DNA of 55,185 bases from Patescibacteria group bacterium (lineage in GTDB: Bacteria; Patescibacteriota; WWE3; JAMCXX01): the NCBI GenBank assembly GCA_023474425.1, contig JAMCXX010000004.1, positions 1 to 55,185 of the forward strand, given 5' to 3'. Below the pieces are notes generated by a model. The model did no database searches and had not been told where the DNA came from. It worked only from the letters and a program-made list of their open reading frames with translations. Every line of letters begins with the position of its first letter. The stretch's first letter is position 1. Shown piece by piece: positions 1 to 11,836 of this stretch. The translations under genes were made by a program, and so were the position numbers.

Positions 1-213
1 CGAGGCAGAACCTTTTTCAATTTCGCCAAGCATTTCATTAAAAATTTCTCGTCCTGGCTCTTTAGCAGTTTTGCTCTCGTAAAATTCCTTTACCACAAAA
101 AGATTATTTTGCTTGGCGAATTCCCGAAGCTCAGTTAATTGAGCCTCAATAGACAAAACTTGGCGTTCCTCATCCTCTGATGATTTTCTACAATAAATAT
201 AATATTTGATCAT
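1..213 (-). CDS. Serine recombinase (resolvase/large serine recombinase family), N-terminal part; runs off the window edge
   Basis: Not in the ORF track. Manual translation from the ATG at 213 gives MIKYYIYCRKSSEDEERQVLSIEAQLTELREFAKQNNLFVVKEFYESKTAKEPGREIFNEMLGEIEKG, which has the YxRxS catalytic motif, the Q..S...Q motif and the S/TAK..GR..F..ML motif. Confidence 0.92.
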   Translation of the reverse strand, partial: MIKYYIYCRKSSEDEERQVLSIEAQLTELREFAKQNNLFVVKEFYESKTAKEPGREIFNEMLGEIEKGSAS

Positions 214-315
214 AGCTTCGGGAATTAAATTGATAAAAGGTTTTGTATTACACCGACAATTTCTAAATCTCCACTCATCGGCTCTTGTGCCTTTGGCACA
301 ATCCAAACTTTGTTT

Positions 316-492
316 GGGAACCGCCGAATTTCGGCGGGAATTCTTTTGGCGGAATTCAAAACCCCTTGGAATTTCTTGGCGGAAACCAATGCCGAGGGGC
401 GAAGCCCCGAGGCAATTTCTTCGGCAAATTCGAAATGGTGGTGTTTGTTTGAAAAAGTCAGAACCCATTTTGCGGAAAATCCCAATGAATGA
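316..492 (+). pseudogene. Orphan coding fragment, probably the C-terminal tail of a CPR-type large serine recombinase
   Basis: Reads GNRRISAGILLAEFKTPWNFLAETNAE...KWWCLFEKVRTHFAENPNE* with no convincing start or RBS. It resembles recombinase C-termini as I recall them (inference). Confidence 0.5.
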
Positions 493-641
493 AATGGAAA
501 CAATGCGGACTCGGCGGGGCAAACTATTTTTCTGGGGGAATGGAATTGCCCCGCCTCGGCTTCCTTCCCGCCCGCAGGAGGGGTCTGGGGAGGAATGCGG
601 GCGGGTTTTTGAACCTTTCCTTTTTCGCTTCCAAATTTCGT
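436..641 (+). repeat. 206-bp inverted repeat, left copy
   Basis: TGGTGGTGTTTG...CCAAATTTCGT is the reverse complement of 2828-3033. Shadow-ORF translations across the two copies are identical. Confidence 0.97.
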
Positions 642-664
642 ATTTTGCAAAGCAAAATGCGCCA
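493..664 (+). other. GC-rich multi-hairpin structured element (candidate ncRNA or ssDNA recombination site)
   Basis: Stems at 513-522/546-555 and 567-576/596-605, then 639-648/652-661 with a 3-nt loop followed by CCA. Mirrored at 2805-2976. Confidence 0.6.
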
Positions 665-799
665 CCAAAAGAGATGTTGCCCTTGACCTACCCAACCCAT
701 TCGCGGGCAACGCTAAGGAACTCCCTTTGTCTGTTATATAATTGCTCTCCATAGACCAATCATATAACATTTGATACAATCAATGCAAGTGGATAAAAT

Positions 800-1003
800 A
801 TGAAAAACGAGATTACAAATTTTGGGAAGCGTCTCCGCGAAGCCCGCTTAAAAAAGAAGATGTCGCAGGGCGATATCGCCGAGAAATTAGGTGTTCACAG
901 GAGTTATATCAGCGGTCTTGAACGCGGGAAACGCAACCCGTCTTTATTAACCATTAATAAAATGGCGAAAGCCATCGGCGTTGAGCCGAAAGAATTACTA
1001 TGA
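800..1003 (+). CDS. XRE-family helix-turn-helix regulator
   Basis: FGKRLREARLKKKMSQGDIAEKLGVHRSYISGLERGKRNPSL is a classic HTH_3 pattern. Confidence 0.93.
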   Translation: MKNEITNFGKRLREARLKKKMSQGDIAEKLGVHRSYISGLERGKRNPSLLTINKMAKAIGVEPKELL

Positions 1004-1398
1004 ATAATTACAACGGCACTATTATTGAGGAATCTTTAGCAAATAAAGATGTTCTCAAAAAAGTAAAAATTATTTCTACAAAAGTTGAACCGATAACTGA
1101 CGAGCACAAAACGCCGTGGCTTTCGCAATGGACTTTACACGCTGTTGAAATTCCTGAAAATGAAGCGCAAAGCGTAGCCGAAGAAATAAGTAAATCCCTT
1201 GATTACTCGCATAATAGTTCTTGGTATGCGGATTATAAAAACAATGCTCATCATTACATAATTTTCCGTGATAAAATTTTCTATATAGACCGAAAAAGCA
1301 AAGAGCAATATGACGAAGCGAAACGCTACGGTATTTCGCTTGGCATACCGGAATATCAAGTGGATTTCCACCCCGAGGTCGAGGAGTGGGAAAGATAA
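1000..1398 (+). CDS. Hypothetical protein
   Basis: 132-aa ORF with an ATGA overlap with the XRE gene (translational coupling). Confidence 0.8.
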   Translation: MNNYNGTIIEESLANKDVLKKVKIISTKVEPITDEHKTPWLSQWTLHAVEIPENEAQSVAEEISKSLDYSHNSSWYADYKNNAHHYIIFRDKIFYIDRKSKEQYDEAKRYGISLGIPEYQVDFHPEVEEWER

Positions 1399-1418
1399 TA
1401 ATTGGAGGTGATAAAAAT

Positions 1419-1787
1419 ATGCTTAAAAAATTATTTGCAAACTGTTTGTTGGTAAATGACTTCGAAAAATCACTTGCCTTTTACCGAGACATTTTAGGGT
1501 TAGAGGTAAATTCAACTGAAGGCAAATTTGCCGATTTCAAGCTTGAAGGCACTTCTTTGGCTATCTTTGAGAAAGAAGCGGCAACGGCTATGTTCCCTAA
1601 AAAATTTATGGGAAATGGCGGCGGAGTGATTTTGGCTTTCCAAGTTGATGATGTCAAAAAGACTTGCGACGATCTAAAAACAAAAGGTATTGAGATTTTT
1701 GAAGGACCAAAAACCACGCCGTGGGGTCAAACTGTTGCTTATTTCAACGATCCAGACGGAAACATTTGGGAAGTTTCGGCAAAATAA
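1419..1787 (+). CDS. VOC/glyoxalase/bleomycin-resistance family protein
   Basis: V.DFEKSLAFYRDILGL...PWGQTVAYFNDPDGNIWEV motifs. An RBS (GGAGGTGA) precedes the ATG at 1419. Confidence 0.92.
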   Translation: MLKKLFANCLLVNDFEKSLAFYRDILGLEVNSTEGKFADFKLEGTSLAIFEKEAATAMFPKKFMGNGGGVILAFQVDDVKKTCDDLKTKGIEIFEGPKTTPWGQTVAYFNDPDGNIWEVSAK

Positions 1788-1795
1788 ATTAGAAT

Positions 1796-2767
1796 ATGAA
1801 GTCATTAGTTTTGAAAAACAAAAAGGAATTTTTTGTATTTCCAAGCTCGCCATTTCATTTTGACGGGACTTTTCATAAACCCTCGCATTATCCCGATAAA
1901 TTGACTGATTGGGAAGCTGGAAAGTATTGGCAAGCAATTAGAATTGGCAAGCGACTTTTTGGCTTGAAAATTGAAAACAAAGGCGCAACACAAAAGCCAA
2001 AAATCAAAGTTTCAATTTTCTATGACACAAACATTTCCGAAAGCGAACTTGGAAAAATCAAGGAAGAAATTATTTGGCGGTTTGATCTGAACGCTGATTT
2101 GAAAGAATTTAACAAGCTCGCCAAAAGCGATAAACGCTTTTATCCAATTTTCAAAAAATGGTTGGGTATGCGCAACTCAAGCGCGCATAATTTGTATGAA
2201 CTTCTCATAATCGCTGTGCTTCTTCAAAACGCGACTGTTCGACGAACTGTGCAAATGACGGACGCCTTGCTTAATAACTACGGAACAAAACTTAAATTTG
2301 ACGGCAAAGAAATTTTTGCGATTTGGTTGCCGGAAAAACTTAACAATGTATCCGAACAAGAACTACGAGATTTGAAAATTGGATATAGAGCAAAATTCAT
2401 AAAGCGTTTATCGCAAAATTTTGCCGAAGGCAAAATTGACGAGCTTAAATTAAGAGAACTTGATCAAGAGGATGCTAAAAAAGAATTAACGAAATTGTAT
2501 GGAGTTGGACCGGAAACCGCTCGCATTTTGCTTTTTGAAGTTTGCCACCAATACAATACTTTTGACCATATTGCCCCGTGGCAACAAAAAATATATTCCC
2601 AACTTTTTTACAAAAAACCGCTTGTCCCGACAAACAAAATCCGAGACGACATTAAAAAACAATATGGCGATTATTCAATGCTCGCGGTTCACTACATTTG
2701 GGAAGATATTTTTTGGAAAAGGAAACATAAAAAAATTGATTGGTTAGAAAAAGAAATCCGACTTTGA
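1796..2767 (+). CDS. AlkA/OGG1-like HhH-GPD DNA glycosylase
   Basis: LR.LKIGYRAKFI and the helix-hairpin-helix LTKLYGVGPETA. Confidence 0.85.
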   Translation: MKSLVLKNKKEFFVFPSSPFHFDGTFHKPSHYPDKLTDWEAGKYWQAIRIGKRLFGLKIENKGATQKPKIKVSIFYDTNISESELGKIKEEIIWRFDLNADLKEFNKLAKSDKRFYPIFKKWLGMRNSSAHNLYELLIIAVLLQNATVRRTVQMTDALLNNYGTKLKFDGKEIFAIWLPEKLNNVSEQELRDLKIGYRAKFIKRLSQNFAEGKIDELKLRELDQEDAKKELTKLYGVGPETARILLFEVCHQYNTFDHIAPWQQKIYSQLFYKKPLVPTNKIRDDIKKQYGDYSMLAVHYIWEDIFWKRKHKKIDWLEKEIRL

Positions 2768-2827
2768 TTTTTTCCGTTTTCTGGTAAATTAAAGATATAA
2801 AAGTTGGCGTGCCAGTTTTCAACTGGC

Positions 2828-3033
2828 ACGAAATTTGGAAGCGAAAAAGGAAAGGTTCAAAAACCCGCCCGCATTCCTCCCCAGACCCCTCCTGCGGGCG
2901 GGAAGGAAGCCGAGGCGGGGCAATTCCATTCCCCCAGAAAAATAGTTTGCCCCGCCGAGTCCGCATTGTTTCCATTTCATTCATTGGGATTTTCCGCAAA
3001 ATGGGTTCTGACTTTTTCAAACAAACACCACCA
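2828..3033 (-). repeat. 206-bp inverted repeat, right copy (its covarying terminal hairpin extends to 2805)
   Basis: Reverse complement of 436-641. Its outer end lies 9 bp from the pgk stop codon. Confidence 0.97.
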
Positions 3034-3042
3034 GTGAAATCT

Positions 3043-4086
3043 TCAGGAAACAGTCAGTGGAACAAGCGCCGGCAGGGGTTGGCCGGATAAAAATTCTAAC
3101 ATGGCGCCCCCGCCCACGGAAATAAAAGAAATATCTGTATCAAGACTATTCTTACGCAAATAAGCCTCGGTATCGCCGCCGCCAACAATAGAACAGGCCC
3201 CTTTCTTGGTTGCCTCAACAATACTCATAGCAATTAAATCGGTGCCGACCAGCTGATTTTTGGAAATGTCGCCCATGGGCCCGTTCCAAACAATCATTTT
3301 AGCTTCCAAAATCTGTGTCGCCCATTCTTTAGCTTTGTTAAAAGATAAATCCGGATCGCCGCAGGAAATCTCAATCTTTGGTCCTAAATTCTTTAACTCA
3401 TCGTGGCAACCCACCAATCCCCCAACCAAAATTTTGTCGGCAATATTCACAAAATTCTTAACTGCCAAAACCTTGGTTTCCACCTTGGCCCCGCCAATTA
3501 CTACATACAAAGGCCTGGCCGGAGTCTTGAGCACCAAGGATAACTCCCGCACCTCGTCCTGTAAATGAAAGCCGGCAAATGAGGGCAGAAATTTAGTAAC
3601 GGCCACCATCGAGGTGTCGGTACGGTGGGAATTGGCAAACGAGTCGTTCACATAATAATCGGCCAAAGCCGCATAACCGCGGGCTAAGTCCTCGCTTCCC
3701 TTCTGCTCGTCGGCTAAAAATCTCAAATTCTCCAAAACCAGTATTTGGCCGGAGGCCAGCGCGGAGATTTCGGCTTCCACCCGCGGTCCCACACAGTATT
3801 GGCTGAGGGTAACGGCCGGATAAATTGATTTTAAATAATCAGCAACCGGTCTGGAACTCTTACTTGGGTCCGGCACCCCACCCGGACGGTCAAGATGCCC
3901 GCCAATAACTACCCTGGCTTTATTCCGAACCAGGAAATCCAGAGTCTTTGAAAAGGATTTTAAACGGGTAGGGTCGCTAACGCTCCATACTCCGCCCGAC
4001 TCAACTAACGGCACATCCAAATCGGCCCGTAAAAAGACCCTCTTACCGTCCAAATCTTTTAGCTCTTCGACGCTTCTCAAATTCAT
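3043..4086 (-). CDS. pgk: Phosphoglycerate kinase
   Basis: RADLDVP, LENLRF, YVNDSFANSHR, GGAKVETK, WNGPMG, GGGDT, SVGGGAMLEFL motifs. Confidence 0.97.
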   Translation of the reverse strand: MNLRSVEELKDLDGKRVFLRADLDVPLVESGGVWSVSDPTRLKSFSKTLDFLVRNKARVVIGGHLDRPGGVPDPSKSSRPVADYLKSIYPAVTLSQYCVGPRVEAEISALASGQILVLENLRFLADEQKGSEDLARGYAALADYYVNDSFANSHRTDTSMVAVTKFLPSFAGFHLQDEVRELSLVLKTPARPLYVVIGGAKVETKVLAVKNFVNIADKILVGGLVGCHDELKNLGPKIEISCGDPDLSFNKAKEWATQILEAKMIVWNGPMGDISKNQLVGTDLIAMSIVEATKKGACSIVGGGDTEAYLRKNSLDTDISFISVGGGAMLEFLSGQPLPALVPLTVS

Positions 4087-4442
4087 GACTCCGTATAAAC
4101 ACTCTTAAAGTATTCTATCTCCGGCGGCTCTGTTAAAACAATGGAAACAACATCAATTCTTAAAGGCAAGGAGGAATTGGCGCCGGTCATTCGATAATTG
4201 TTAGCCGTGCGCACGAGTGATTTTAACTTGTAGTAGTTGACGGCTTCGAAAGGTTTACCCAAAGAACCGACCGAACGGGTTTTAACCTCAATAAAAACTA
4301 GGTCTTCGTGATCCTTGGCGACGATGTCCAACTCTCCCCAACGTTTACTCTTCCAATTCCGGGCCAGGATTTTATAGCCCCGCTTAGAAACATAATCGGC
4401 CGCGATTTCCTCGCCCCTTTGGCCGACACTTAAACCCTCCAT
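4083..4442 (-). CDS. yraN: YraN family (UPF0102) nuclease-like protein
   Basis: G..GE..A..Y....GY.IL.RN, GELDIVA, LVFIEVKTR. Confidence 0.93.
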   Translation of the reverse strand: MEGLSVGQRGEEIAADYVSKRGYKILARNWKSKRWGELDIVAKDHEDLVFIEVKTRSVGSLGKPFEAVNYYKLKSLVRTANNYRMTGANSSLPLRIDVVSIVLTEPPEIEYFKSVYTES

Positions 4443-4741
4443 TACGACAACTTTTTCCTAACTTCTTTGGGAGACAAATTCCTCACAAAATAAACTTTGG
4501 CGCGCCTTACACGACCTTGGCGAAGAAGCTCAACCTTCTCTAAATTAGGGCTGCTTAAGGGAAAAATCCTTTCCACCCCTACATTATCGGCACCTATATG
4601 CCGAACCGTAAAAGTCTTATCGCCGGCCTGGCCCTTTACTGCCAAGACGACACCTTCAAAAGCCTGTGTCCGCGTTTGTTCGCCTTCTTTAATTTTATAA
4701 TAAACTTTTATCGTGTCGCCGGCCTTAAAATTCAAATCCAT
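4442..4741 (-). CDS. rplS: 50S ribosomal protein L19
   Basis: FKAGDTIKV...QAFEGVV...TFTVR..GVERIFPL.SP...GRVRRAK. The ATG at 4741 was chosen as start. Confidence 0.97.
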   Translation of the reverse strand: MDLNFKAGDTIKVYYKIKEGEQTRTQAFEGVVLAVKGQAGDKTFTVRHIGADNVGVERIFPLSSPNLEKVELLRQGRVRRAKVYFVRNLSPKEVRKKLS

Positions 4742-10450: not shown

Positions 10451-11836
10451 ACCATTCGGCCTTTCCTTATGCCACTCAGTTGATTGTTCATAATGGTAAG
10501 CCACCCGCAAAACCAATTCCTCCGAAAGCTTGGGACCTATTAGGTCTAAACCCACCGGCATTCCTTCACTAAAACCACACGGGACGGAAATACCTGCCAG
10601 ACCGGCAATGGAACTCGGCTCCACCAAAACGTCCGCCATTTCCCCAAACATTGACTGCCCCCGGCTTACTCCCACCGGCAACGCTATCGTCGGCGAAACC
10701 GGGCCAGCTATGAGGTCGACTTCGGAAAAAGCCCGGTTAAAATCATTAATAATTAAAGTCCTTACTTTTTCCGCCGTTTTGTAGTAGGCGTCATAGTATC
10801 CGGCCGAAAGGGCGTAAGTTCCTAGCATAATCCGCCTTTTGGCCTCCGGACCAAACGCTTCGCGCCCTTCTCCATACCGTATTCCGTCATATCTGGCCAA
10901 GTTACTGGAAACCTCACTACGTTGAATAATAGTGTAAACGGCAATGGAATATTTGGGATCCAGTAGGGAAATCTCTTTAACCAAGCAACCCAGCGTCTCC
11001 AGTTGCTTTACAGCCTCCATAACCTTTTGGGAAACTCCGTTTTCTACCCCTTCAAAATATTCCTTCGGCACTCCAATTTTTAATCCGCCGACGGAATCAT
11101 TGAGCCGGGCGGTATAATCGGGAACTTCGTCCGGCAAAGACGTGGCGTCATAAACATCGTGGCCGGCTAAAATGCTTAAGAGAAATGCCGCATCCCAAAC
11201 TGTTTTGGTAATCGGGCCGGGGCTGTCGGTGGACGAAGCCATAGCCACAATTCCGTAGCGCGAAACACGCCCGTAACTGGGCTTAAACCCAACCACCCCG
11301 CACCAGCCGGCAGGCTGGCGAATGGAACCGGCCGTTTCCGTGCCCACCGCCGCCAAGCACAAGTCGGCGGCTACGGCCGCCGCCGACCCGCCGGAGGATC
11401 CGCCCGGCAAACGCGTCAAATCCCAGGGATTTAAGGTCGGACCAAAGTCCGATGTTTCCGTGGACGAGCCGTGGGCCCAGGCGTCCATATTAGTTTTCCC
11501 CAACAAAAACGCCCCGGCTCTAATTAGCTTTTCCGCGATCGTGGCGTTGTATTGAGGTTTATAATCCTTCAAAACGCTGGAAGATGCGGTTGTTTTAAAA
11601 TCTTTGGTGAGAATGTTGTCCTTTAGAGCTAGAGGTAAGTCCTTTAATACCGAGTCACTACGCGGTTCAATACTGTTAATTTCGTCTAAGCTTACTGAAC
11701 TTAAATAAGCACGAACTTTAGAATCTCTTTGCGAAATGGCCGCAAGGCAGTCCACCACAACATCTCGGCCGCTAAATTCTCCATTGGTTATTCCTTCCAA
11801 TGCCTCTTTTAGTGTAAGATTATTAAGACCCGTCAT
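10448..11836 (-). CDS. gatA: Asp/Glu-tRNA amidotransferase subunit A
   Basis: Amidase signature GGSSGGSAAAVAA, TETAGSIRQPA and RRIMLGTY.LSAGYYDAYY. Confidence 0.97.
   Translation of the reverse strand: MTGLNNLTLKEALEGITNGEFSGRDVVVDCLAAISQRDSKVRAYLSSVSLDEINSIEPRSDSVLKDLPLALKDNILTKDFKTTASSSVLKDYKPQYNATIAEKLIRAGAFLLGKTNMDAWAHGSSTETSDFGPTLNPWDLTRLPGGSSGGSAAAVAADLCLAAVGTETAGSIRQPAGWCGVVGFKPSYGRVSRYGIVAMASSTDSPGPITKTVWDAAFLLSILAGHDVYDATSLPDEVPDYTARLNDSVGGLKIGVPKEYFEGVENGVSQKVMEAVKQLETLGCLVKEISLLDPKYSIAVYTIIQRSEVSSNLARYDGIRYGEGREAFGPEAKRRIMLGTYALSAGYYDAYYKTAEKVRTLIINDFNRAFSEVDLIAGPVSPTIALPVGVSRGQSMFGEMADVLVEPSSIAGLAGISVPCGFSEGMPVGLDLIGPKLSEELVLRVAYHYEQSTEWHKERPNG

Follow-up and report, generated by a model that had tools for sequence, protein, structure and literature searches.

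Perfect inverted repeats beside a serine recombinase gene in a Patescibacteria genome are probably attachment-site arms of a small tRNA-targeting integrase island

Why should four genes next to a serine recombinase be enclosed by a long and perfect inverted repeat? The question is raised by the start of contig JAMCXX010000004.1 (C4) of a Patescibacteria group bacterium, whose first 55,185 nt make up the window, the whole stretch of DNA analyzed here. A preliminary description had proposed an invertible or recombinase-mobilized cassette, possibly integron-like. We think it likely that each repeat copy is an arm of an attachment site for a large serine recombinase (LSR), and that the locus is a tRNA-targeting serine-integrase island of ~4.3 kb that keeps an inverted attP.

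Positions 436-641 and 2828-3033 form arms of 206 nt that are 100% complementary and separated by a spacer of 2186 nt. Whole-genome blastn finds full repeat copies only at these two places in the 681-kb assembly; with the arm comparison and the Logan unitigs described below, this bears out the perfect repeat around four genes. Position 213 is the start of the recombinase gene (minus strand), which leaves 223 nt between it and the repeat to its right, close to the ~220 bp first given. The enclosed genes also match the original call of XRE, hypothetical, VOC and AlkA-like. By Pfam, an HTH_3 XRE-type regulator of 67 aa (800-1003, plus strand) is followed by the variable cargo genes (1000-2767, plus strand), which comprise a 132-aa ORF without a Pfam match (1000-1398), a Glyoxalase/Ble protein of the bleomycin-resistance fold (1419-1787) and a weak match to an HhH-GPD glycosylase-like protein (1796-2767). 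The region 1-3033 contains no transposase ORF. The cargo starts with a conserved leader or promoter of the HTH gene (642-799, plus strand). Its first part (642-726) is 80-83% identical in six related loci and lies on the other side and strand in L094, and the best promoter-like match in the window segment lies at 771-799.

The window begins inside the recombinase gene. There, C4 and a second contig, C5, share 32 nt at their ends, window 1-32 being the reverse complement of C5 1-32, and can be joined; the ORF runs unbroken across the join. The 5' part of the gene, the first 71 codons with a Resolvase match, occupies 1-213 on the minus strand, and the rest lies on C5 33-1358, giving an enzyme of 512 aa. 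The join brings a second repeat pair into view: by blastn, window 318-441 equals C5 1199-1322 over 124 nt at 100%. The copy in the window provides the A arm (318-435, plus strand), an inverted duplicate of the recombinase 3' end that codes for about the last 40 residues before the crossover. Between the A arm and the gene lies a conserved 104-nt upstream region, U (214-317), presumably a promoter/operator, which has matches in 60 related loci and 89-97% nucleotide identity in the best-matching ones; its sole promoter-like match is weak. Beyond the second A copy on C5 is a tRNA-Lys(UUU; ttt) gene (L001 1317-1394, minus strand) that overlaps the end of the recombinase ORF. The second repeat pair, the contig join and the tRNA had all been missed in the preliminary description.

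In the direction of pgk, the joined locus reads pgk, core, B, cargo, inverted B, inverted core, inverted A, U, recombinase (ending in A), core and tRNA-Lys(UUU), with the tRNA convergent. It thus consists of two adjoining segments, each between perfect inverted repeats, and spans ~4.32 kb from outer core to outer core. The core is TGGTGG (436-441, plus strand), the reverse complement of the CCACCA end of the tRNA, and it is the only sequence common to the three junctions pgk|B, A|tRNA-Lys and the inner, inverted A|B. In relatives the core is typically GTGG, and it is TGG in L101. The left copy of the 206-nt repeat comprises the core and the B arm (442-641, plus strand), and the right copy (2828-3033, minus strand) is the B arm with the core at pgk. 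Divergence from the A arm falls exactly at 3033/3034, where host sequence begins with 9 nt and then pgk (flank 3034-4086, gene 3043-4086, minus strand, PGK Pfam match). The outer ends of the element, an A arm and a B arm, are unrelated to each other. Judged by composition, pgk|B is attL, A|tRNA-Lys is attR and the complete inner A|B is an inverted attP. By this three-junction integrase logic, the B arms bracket the four-gene cargo and the A arms bracket the 512-aa recombinase.

The domain architecture of the enzyme fits this role. PF00239 (Resolvase), PF07508 (Recombinase) and PF13408 (Zn_ribbon_recom) all score above cut-offs on the two contig pieces. Residues 191-417 of the full-length relative L116 align with the C-terminal domain of A118 integrase (4KIS), and the AlphaFold model of L116 shows long helices at 340-387 and 393-420 (block pLDDT 72-92), further helices, and a β-hairpin at 460-471 where the A arm begins (mean pLDDT 67.6, moderate). 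The alignment and the model place a coiled-coil insertion within the zinc-ribbon domain. The C-terminal helix of the model (496-515) has a pLDDT of only ~47-59. Judged from these domains, the enzyme is an integrase-type LSR and not a Hin/Gin-type invertase. A phage or plasmid origin was considered and rejected: the closest LSR in the phage and plasmid collections searched has less than 30% identity, and IMG/VR yielded only two partial matches, both at contig ends.

The B arm completes this gene. Positions 442-492 code for the native 16-residue C-terminal tail of the recombinase and its stop codon, with a coding signature (codon-position entropy of 0.66/0.30/1.10 over 40 distinct arms) and a conserved tail peptide. 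The coding tail noticed earlier in the repeat is therefore real, and it is the conserved C-terminus of the recombinase, which the reading frame includes only where B follows the gene. Beyond it, the B arm has two G+C-rich hairpins and then a T run. An RNA gene in 436-641 or its copy was rejected as a candidate, with no Rfam match at the gathering threshold or at E values up to 10 and an ordinary fold (z -1.5).

The arms also differ in the way expected of serine integrase sites. A T-loop-like GAAC motif begins 5 nt further from the core in the B arm, at +19 (35/38 matches have the equivalent offset), than in the tRNA arm, at +14. The tRNA-arm value comes from 34 first matches; 18 others match first at +9, where the sequence is a GAAT upstream of the motif. 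According to the site model of Rutherford et al. 2013 (PMC3783163), as far as that account goes, the zinc-ribbon domain is shifted 5 bp inward on attB half-sites. The spacing is P-type in the B arm and B-type in the tRNA arm, which matches this model. The same source, within its account of serine-integrase rules, gives attP as unreactive with attL, attR or another attP, so the inner attP has no obvious partner in cis.

An empty attB was not found when pgk was sought in 20 relatives and nine loci were examined. The only genome of the same family (G001) has a tRNA-Lys(ttt) 42 nt after pgk that is co-directional, not convergent, and the eight other relatives have no tRNA beside pgk; the attB is thus unconfirmed.

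We surveyed 160 related loci (64-93% aa identity); each of two collections holds at least 550 relatives. Of the 121 loci with enough downstream sequence, 109 have a convergent tRNA gene where the recombinase gene ends (Ala 97, Val 6, Ser 3, Ile 1, Glu 1, Arg 1). The remaining 12 comprise five that abut a tmRNA gene, four that are tRNA-like but uncalled and three that read into a B arm. A-arm repeats occur in 105/117 loci (46 at 100%, 87 at ≥95% and 18 below 95%; absent in 12), and B-arm repeats surround 1.5-8 kb of unrelated cargo in 35/49 (absent in 14). Hybrid attL and attR with a short common core are present in the window and in 14 related loci. In 14 of the 15 pairings listed, the inner left arm equals the left arm of attR and the inner right arm equals the right arm of attL; the exception, L028, falsely pairs tRNA paralogues. 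The attL arm of L068 begins where its contig ends. At tRNA-Pro, Gln, Arg and Tyr, more distant relatives (40-55% aa identity) likewise have repeats on both sides of the recombinase gene in 6/11 loci, as does a second element in the present genome, one of these distant relatives.

The cargo changes while the backbone persists. The backbone is 83-97% identical between loci whose cargo has no match, and the variable genes of the window have no nucleotide homolog in the 160 related loci. Twenty related cargo segments encode restriction-modification systems, OLD-family nucleases, Vsr, an Erm-like methylase with APH, a two-component system, transporters and peptidases. An HTH_3 ORF of 65-79 aa occurs in 13 of these 20, and the 67-aa HTH_3 gene is the only backbone gene besides the recombinase. 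Related copies of the repeat flank variable cargo next to homologous recombinases across many CPR/Patescibacteria assemblies. The original idea that the neighboring recombinase moves an element with this cassette as its cargo is supported. Near-identical copies of the window's element are present in mine-tailings, wastewater and bioreactor contigs (three studies), with cargo 98.3-99.3% identical in runs of two other studies, and a further six studies, sludge and farm included, have runs that contain part of its sequence words. In runs X3 and X6, pgk is almost uncovered, which says nothing about the host.

We propose that integration would proceed by recombination of attP with attB within the last TGG of the core, equivalent to C71-A73 of the tRNA, and that the integrated element would resupply the tRNA 3' end. 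Since the crossover lies inside the recombinase ORF, integration would also swap the native C-terminal tail of the enzyme for antisense-tRNA codons. Excision by attL x attR would make the gene full-length again and yield a circle of ~4.3 kb, in which two inverted attP copies would part the cargo segment from the recombinase segment. The arms may be kept near-identical by gene conversion or by inversion between them. The predicted pair of attP sites is seen in L180, whose recombinase gene is flanked by two A|B units in inverted orientation (287 nt, 86.8% identical). Counting against this scheme, L116 seemingly has just one A|B site. If the two attP copies of the circle were equivalent, the recombinase should point away from the tRNA in about half of the insertions, but at most 3/121 loci read into B and three more (L043, L087, L097) carry the tRNA upstream. 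No recombination directionality factor candidate was identified, and terminal overlaps, as a sign of a circular form, were found in 0/162 loci.

The retained inverted attP could also be a working part of a new kind of CPR mobile element, a tentative idea that we consider rather unlikely. Integration at the 3' end of the gene would cut off the conserved tail and lock the island, and the 3' end that the gene has lost would be kept, with an armed attP, in the spare copy upstream. A full-length enzyme would be rebuilt if the recombinase segment inverted between its 124-nt arms, and this enzyme could mobilize the island again or recombine other tRNA genes with the inner attP. If this were true, chromosomal inversions and split or reshuffled cargo and recombinase modules would follow, and the free element would resemble the 2-micron plasmid, as a circle that has two attP sites. 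The yeast 2-micron plasmid is a replicating circle that is not known to integrate, with two long inverted repeats that contain the target sites of FLP, a tyrosine recombinase, and two unique segments, one of which encodes the recombinase. The likeness lies in the predicted free circle of the present element.

The recombinase might instead flip the cargo, and perhaps its own gene, as a phase-variable segment with inversion as the main function, which we regard as improbable. In the C segment of phage P1, long inverted repeats carry the crossover sites at their outer ends. Here, too, the common core is at the outer end of each repeat pair, a serine recombinase adjoins a segment between inverted repeats as in the Hin/Gin/Cin/Pin systems (Mu G and P1 C segments), and a flip of the recombinase segment would reconnect the gene with its conserved native tail. 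Three loci (L043, L087, L097) have a tRNA upstream of the recombinase, and the cargo has the opposite orientation in L080 and L094, two of the 13 segments with an identified HTH gene. These 13 Pfam-identified genes are the whole basis for cargo orientation because tblastn with the XRE protein of the window was too insensitive (no match in 48/67 loci). However, short-read assemblers cannot orient segments between repeats longer than the reads, here of 124-400 nt, so the orientation of the flipped relatives is unreliable; L102, a perfect fold-back contig of 2163 nt, was produced by the same repeat graph. The invertases are also small (~190 aa), have a C-terminal HTH, use an enhancer and, by inversion, switch alternative tail-fiber or flagellin genes, whereas the present enzyme is a 512-aa integrase-type LSR. 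The cargo is flanked on both sides by the same 206 nt and has its own leader, so its inversion would exchange no promoter or gene end; only the recombinase tail would change if that segment flipped. Junctions are of the integration type, the outer flanks are host DNA and a tRNA, near-identical backbones occur at varied tRNAs and in varied hosts, and published LSRs, within the account cited above (PMC3783163), do not recombine attP with attL or attR. Of the earlier suggestion of an invertible cassette, it stands that inversion is possible, but the view of the repeat as a pair of dedicated inversion sites is not supported.

Still less probable is that the inner attP serves as an integron-like landing pad, which captures circles with a tRNA-like attB, or that elements exchange cargo with one another via the B arms. 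The inner site is intact and P-type, backbone pieces are 83-97% identical between elements of unrelated cargo, cargo size varies from 1.5 to 8 kb, and a 3751-nt contig of run X6 shares only window 2798-2849 before other sequence follows. Yet every locus examined has a single cargo segment per element, with no array and no internal attL/attR pairs, standard loci have no tRNA-like arm at the inner site, free cassette circles were not seen in the same 162 loci, and ordinary homologous recombination in the arms could equally exchange cargo. Integrons likewise combine a conserved platform of recombinase and site with variable cargo. They differ in using a tyrosine recombinase (IntI) and folded single-strand attC sites captured at attI in direct-order arrays, all of which are absent here. 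With neither an array nor attC-like sites found, the label integron-like, given at first, is apt only loosely, for swappable cargo on a conserved backbone.

The junctions were also followed through Logan assemblies. In the probable source run X1, a single unitig of 2246 nt holds the cargo (612-2857), and it begins and ends with the same 30 nt, inversely oriented. A separate unitig carries the A|B junction (412-465), a contig of 2384 nt that spans window 3004-4500 includes the pgk|B junction, and a 482-nt unitig covers window 1-347 plus 135 nt past the window start. Run X6, from another study, has a 522-nt unitig that reads from the recombinase 5' end through U, A and core into B (15-536) with 22 differences. 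Per-contig depth in X1 is 48-59 for repeat pieces and 23-29 for unique pieces, which fits two repeat copies, although depth is not copy number, and it is 27 at the A|B junction, not above the unique flanks. CPR contigs often break at these recombinase genes because of the repeats. That a chimeric or fold-back join made the inverted copies is very unlikely, even though the window begins at a contig end inside the recombinase gene, many related contigs stop in the A arm and fold-backs such as L102 occur: every junction stands in separate, independent Logan unitigs from two runs of the source study, the U-A-core-B order recurs in another study, the layout is found in well over 100 contigs from different assemblers, including the record CP055308.1 (L082), titled a complete genome, and we reason that all observed junctions cannot be walked in the graph without both repeat pairs, so the repeat is not collapsed or misassembled.

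The integrase island that we favor most resembles the serine integrases of phages and integrative elements (A118/LI, phiC31, Bxb1, SPbeta). It shares their resolvase, recombinase and zinc-ribbon domains with the coiled-coil insertion, a short core, the 5-bp-shifted motif of attP and attB, and hybrid attL and attR after integration. In contrast to these, it targets the 3' end of a tRNA or tmRNA gene, crosses over inside the recombinase ORF, keeps a second complete inverted attP after integration, and has no phage or transfer genes in an element of only ~4-10 kb. Tycheposons and other tRNA/tmRNA islands (Hackl et al., bioRxiv 10.1101/2020.12.28.424599) are, as described there in part, also small elements that bring cargo into tRNA genes by means of a site-specific recombinase, shuttling genes for niche or defense functions. 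Within that account, an LSR occurs in 27 of 937 tycheposons and cryptic elements reported alongside; tyrosine integrases prevail, a tRNA segment is directly repeated at the flanks, replication genes are present in many, and the parts of the account that bear on this make no mention of an internal inverted attP or a double inverted-repeat layout. The present element further departs from a classical tRNA island in its serine-type enzyme and in having only 3-6 nt common to its ends, and from a transposon or IS in that these ends do not match each other and a transposase ORF is lacking.

We found no published account of this layout (supplements and subscription journals lay outside the search) and no literature on large serine recombinases in the Candidate Phyla Radiation; a search for Patescibacteria with serine recombinase returned nothing related. 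The enzymes represent a new clade of large serine integrases whose attP and attB (tRNA 3' ends) are readable, which makes them of interest for genome engineering. They also pose a mechanistic puzzle: an intact attP and a spare integrase 3' end are kept, and conserved down to 40-55% protein identity, and current serine-integrase directionality rules do not predict a retained attP. CPR/Patescibacteria have tiny genomes for which few mobile elements are described. This family of recombinase islands looks like a common vehicle among them, one that moves restriction-modification, nuclease defense, resistance-like and repair genes between lineages.

The 206-nt inverted repeat described in the preliminary description is exact: positions 436-641 and 2828-3033 are complementary over their full length, and a search of the five-contig, 681-kb assembly finds just these two full copies. 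Its arms (B) enclose the four genes originally listed. Pfam domains mark an HTH_3 regulator (800-1003), a Glyoxalase/Ble-fold protein (1419-1787) and, by a weak match, an HhH-GPD protein (1796-2767); a 132-aa ORF between the arms has no Pfam match. The serine recombinase was also correctly placed left of the repeat. It is read on the minus strand from position 213 and leaves the window at the start of contig C4.

Window positions 1-32 are the reverse complement of positions 1-32 of contig C5, an end overlap found nowhere else in the assembly, which makes these contigs neighbours. The recombinase ORF carries on into C5, for a total of 512 aa, and a unitig from the probable source run (X1) extends 135 nt beyond the window start. 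Positions 318-441 (arm A) are identical to C5 1199-1322, the recombinase's own 3' coding end, which on C5 directly abuts the 3' end of a convergent tRNA-Lys(ttt). A overlaps B by TGGTGG, the reverse complement of the CCACCA end of the tRNA, and the right B copy terminates in TGGTGG 9 nt from the stop codon of the phosphoglycerate kinase gene (pgk). Three junctions therefore exist: A-B (window 318-641), A-tRNA (on C5) and pgk-B (3045-2828, read on the minus strand), which in the terms used for large serine recombinases (LSRs) are attP, attR and attL. Along the region lie, in turn, pgk, attL, cargo, inverted attP, the region upstream of the recombinase gene (U), recombinase, attR and tRNA-Lys. 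The outer cores lie ~4.32 kb apart, with B arms flanking the cargo and A arms flanking the recombinase gene. Elsewhere in the window, ARAGORN calls an 89-nt tRNA-Thr(tgt) at 11306-11394, where the Rfam tRNA model is silent at its gathering threshold; the remaining four window tRNAs are called by both.

Queries with the C5 part of the recombinase returned more than 550 relatives in genome_contigs and more than 550 in metagenome_contigs, both lower bounds. We analysed the best 80 from each (160 loci, 64-93% identity); almost all of their records name CPR/Patescibacteria lineages in the title. Among these best matches, 121 loci have 100 nt or more of downstream sequence, and in 109 of them a convergent tRNA adjoins the recombinase end (Ala 97, Val 6, Ser 3, and Ile, Glu and Arg 1 each). 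The other 12 adjoin a tmRNA gene (five), have an uncalled tRNA-like end (four) or run into a B arm (L116, L130, L180). In L034, L039, L048, L088 and L129 it is the 3' end of the tmRNA that adjoins the recombinase; such targets fit the alanine-tRNA-like acceptor end of tmRNA. Where upstream sequence is long enough (117 loci), A-arm repeats surround the recombinase in 105, with modal lengths of 124 and 133 nt; the pairs are 100% identical in 46, at least 95% in 87 and below 95% in 18. Of the 49 loci whose flank reaches 3 kb or more, 35 have B-arm repeats of 65-397 nt around 1.5-8 kb. In 14 loci with both repeat pairs, arms are swapped at three junctions as in the window.

More distant homologues (40-55% identity) occur at tRNA-Pro, Gln and Arg, and 55-158-nt repeats bracket the recombinase gene in 6 of 11 loci examined. 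The window's own genome encodes a second LSR on contig C3 (~93696-95686; 43% identical, 576-aa frame). Its 3' end lies against tRNA-Tyr(gta), and a 60-nt, 98% inverted repeat brackets it, with the contig end ~470 nt beyond; the arrangement seen in the window is repeated here at a different tRNA. In L015 (1501-1557, genome G018), L016, L017 and L020, lone stretches of 34-57 nt match the core-proximal portion of the site at 77-89% and lie remote from recombinase hits. The L015 flank resembles an A-arm end and is possibly a decayed element.

In the 14 loci with this arm swapping, the core shared by the three junctions is usually GTGG and shrinks to TGG in L101; this narrows the crossover dinucleotide to TG or GG, within C71-A73 of the tRNA. 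A T-loop-like GAAC begins 19 nt from the core in B arms and 14 nt from it in tRNA arms (T-arm TCGAAC). Rutherford et al. 2013 (PMC3783163) describe a 5-nt difference in where the zinc-ribbon domain sits on attP versus attB half-sites, and under that model B corresponds to a P-type arm, with the tRNA supplying the B-type arm. On the host side, attL arms are unrelated A+T-rich sequences.

The proposed coding tail in the repeat is genuine, as indicated by three features of its first ~16 codons in the recombinase frame: all 40 distinct arms keep the frame open over 14 codons or more, the encoded peptide is conserved (pattern K-V-R-T-H-F-x-x-N-P-D), and entropies by codon position are 0.66, 0.30 and 1.10. 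This tail forms the native C-terminus of the enzyme and is encoded only where the gene continues into B; after integration, codons read antisense from the tRNA take its place. Relative L116 is naturally full-length, and its AlphaFold model (built from 64 aligned sequences; mean pLDDT 67.6) predicts that A begins at the last beta-hairpin, beyond the coiled coil, and that the crossover falls within a low-confidence C-terminal helix. At window 392-410, and at the corresponding position of related A arms, lies a small hairpin with a GAA loop, both sides of which differ between elements (GGGGC/GCCCC, GGCGC/GCGCC, ACGC/GCGT). This pattern hints at a structural role besides coding.

That the inverted layout is an assembly artefact is very improbable. 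In the X1 Logan assembly, A is its own 124-nt unitig, a 54-nt unitig represents the A-B junction, the cargo lies in a single 2246-nt unitig that carries one 30-nt sequence at both ends, in opposite orientations, and a 2384-nt contig contains pgk-B; the recombinase-A and A-tRNA joins correspond to loose ends at 318 and 441. Walks using all junctions yield only the assembled arrangement and its flips, and in X6, a run from another study, U, A, core and B lie within one unitig with 22 differences. The cargo recurs at 99.3% identity in X3 and 98.3% in X6. Per-contig depth is 48-59 for repeat pieces versus 23-29 for unique pieces, which fits two copies, although depth does not equal copy number. 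Within the B arm, the G+C-rich hairpin stretch (2851-3000, equivalent to 469-618) reaches a summed contig depth of 354-540 in X6 and X2 versus 9-50 elsewhere, and recurs in numerous other sequences that are more abundant in those communities. The whole 7017-nt contig of L102 carries a perfect 2163-nt terminal fold-back (tRNA-recombinase-cargo-recombinase-tRNA), which is the assembler walking back through repeats and a caution for binning and for orientation calls in this element family.

Integration would proceed via attP x attB, and excision would restore the gene and release a circle with two inverted attP copies, alike in form to the 2-micron plasmid. Gene conversion or inversion would keep the repeats identical. 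The two-attP form is supported by L180, where the recombinase lies between two inverted A-B units that are unambiguous to the assembler because they are just 86.8% identical. Several results count against this model. Terminal overlaps indicative of circular forms occur in 0 of 162 loci, and no candidate directionality factor was identified for this island. We found no empty site; pgk and tRNA-Lys are neighbours in G001, a genome of the same family, but co-directional. There (L185, 2572-2688), no element is present and tRNA-Lys(ttt) follows pgk on the same strand after 42 nt. The neighbourhood also occurs in the window's genome, but the tRNA is oriented opposite to that of the reconstructed empty site. 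Also counting against a serine-integrase island, published LSRs, as described in PMC3783163, do not pair attP with attL, attR or attP. One orientation also strongly dominates among loci, which equal use of both attP copies would not predict. Flipped cargo (L080, L094) and tRNAs upstream of the recombinase (L043, L087, L097) are not trustworthy as natural inversions, since short-read assemblers orient such loops arbitrarily and the L102 fold-back arises from the same graph.

Serine-integrase islands share the working principle seen here, and the testable features of the LSR family are present. The defining features of Hin/Gin switches, integrons and transposons were each looked for and do not describe this locus, which belongs to none of the three classes. 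Tycheposons, tRNA-targeting cargo islands, are among the closest functional neighbours; a small minority carry an LSR, according to Hackl et al. (bioRxiv 10.1101/2020.12.28.424599). A full-text literature search, with subscription journals and supplements outside its coverage, returned no description of this layout or of LSR elements in CPR.

The window's backbone (recombinase 5' end, U, A and B) is 83-97% identical to the best-matching other loci, and matches of its 2.2-kb cargo to the 160 loci are confined to its initial ~85 nt and to a weak signal in the HTH gene. A 65-79-aa HTH_3 gene adjoins one arm in 13 of 20 related cargo segments, which also encode restriction-modification systems, OLD-family nucleases, Vsr, a two-component system, transporters, peptidases, NUDIX proteins and others. 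In L040 (4139-6056), an Erm-like rRNA adenine dimethylase adjoins an APH-family phosphotransferase; these are resistance-like genes carried by an element of this type in an environmental CPR genome. The evidence establishes a system that combines an LSR, three site types, tRNA/tmRNA targeting, variable cargo and tail swapping, and its overall identity is likely that of a serine-integrase island.
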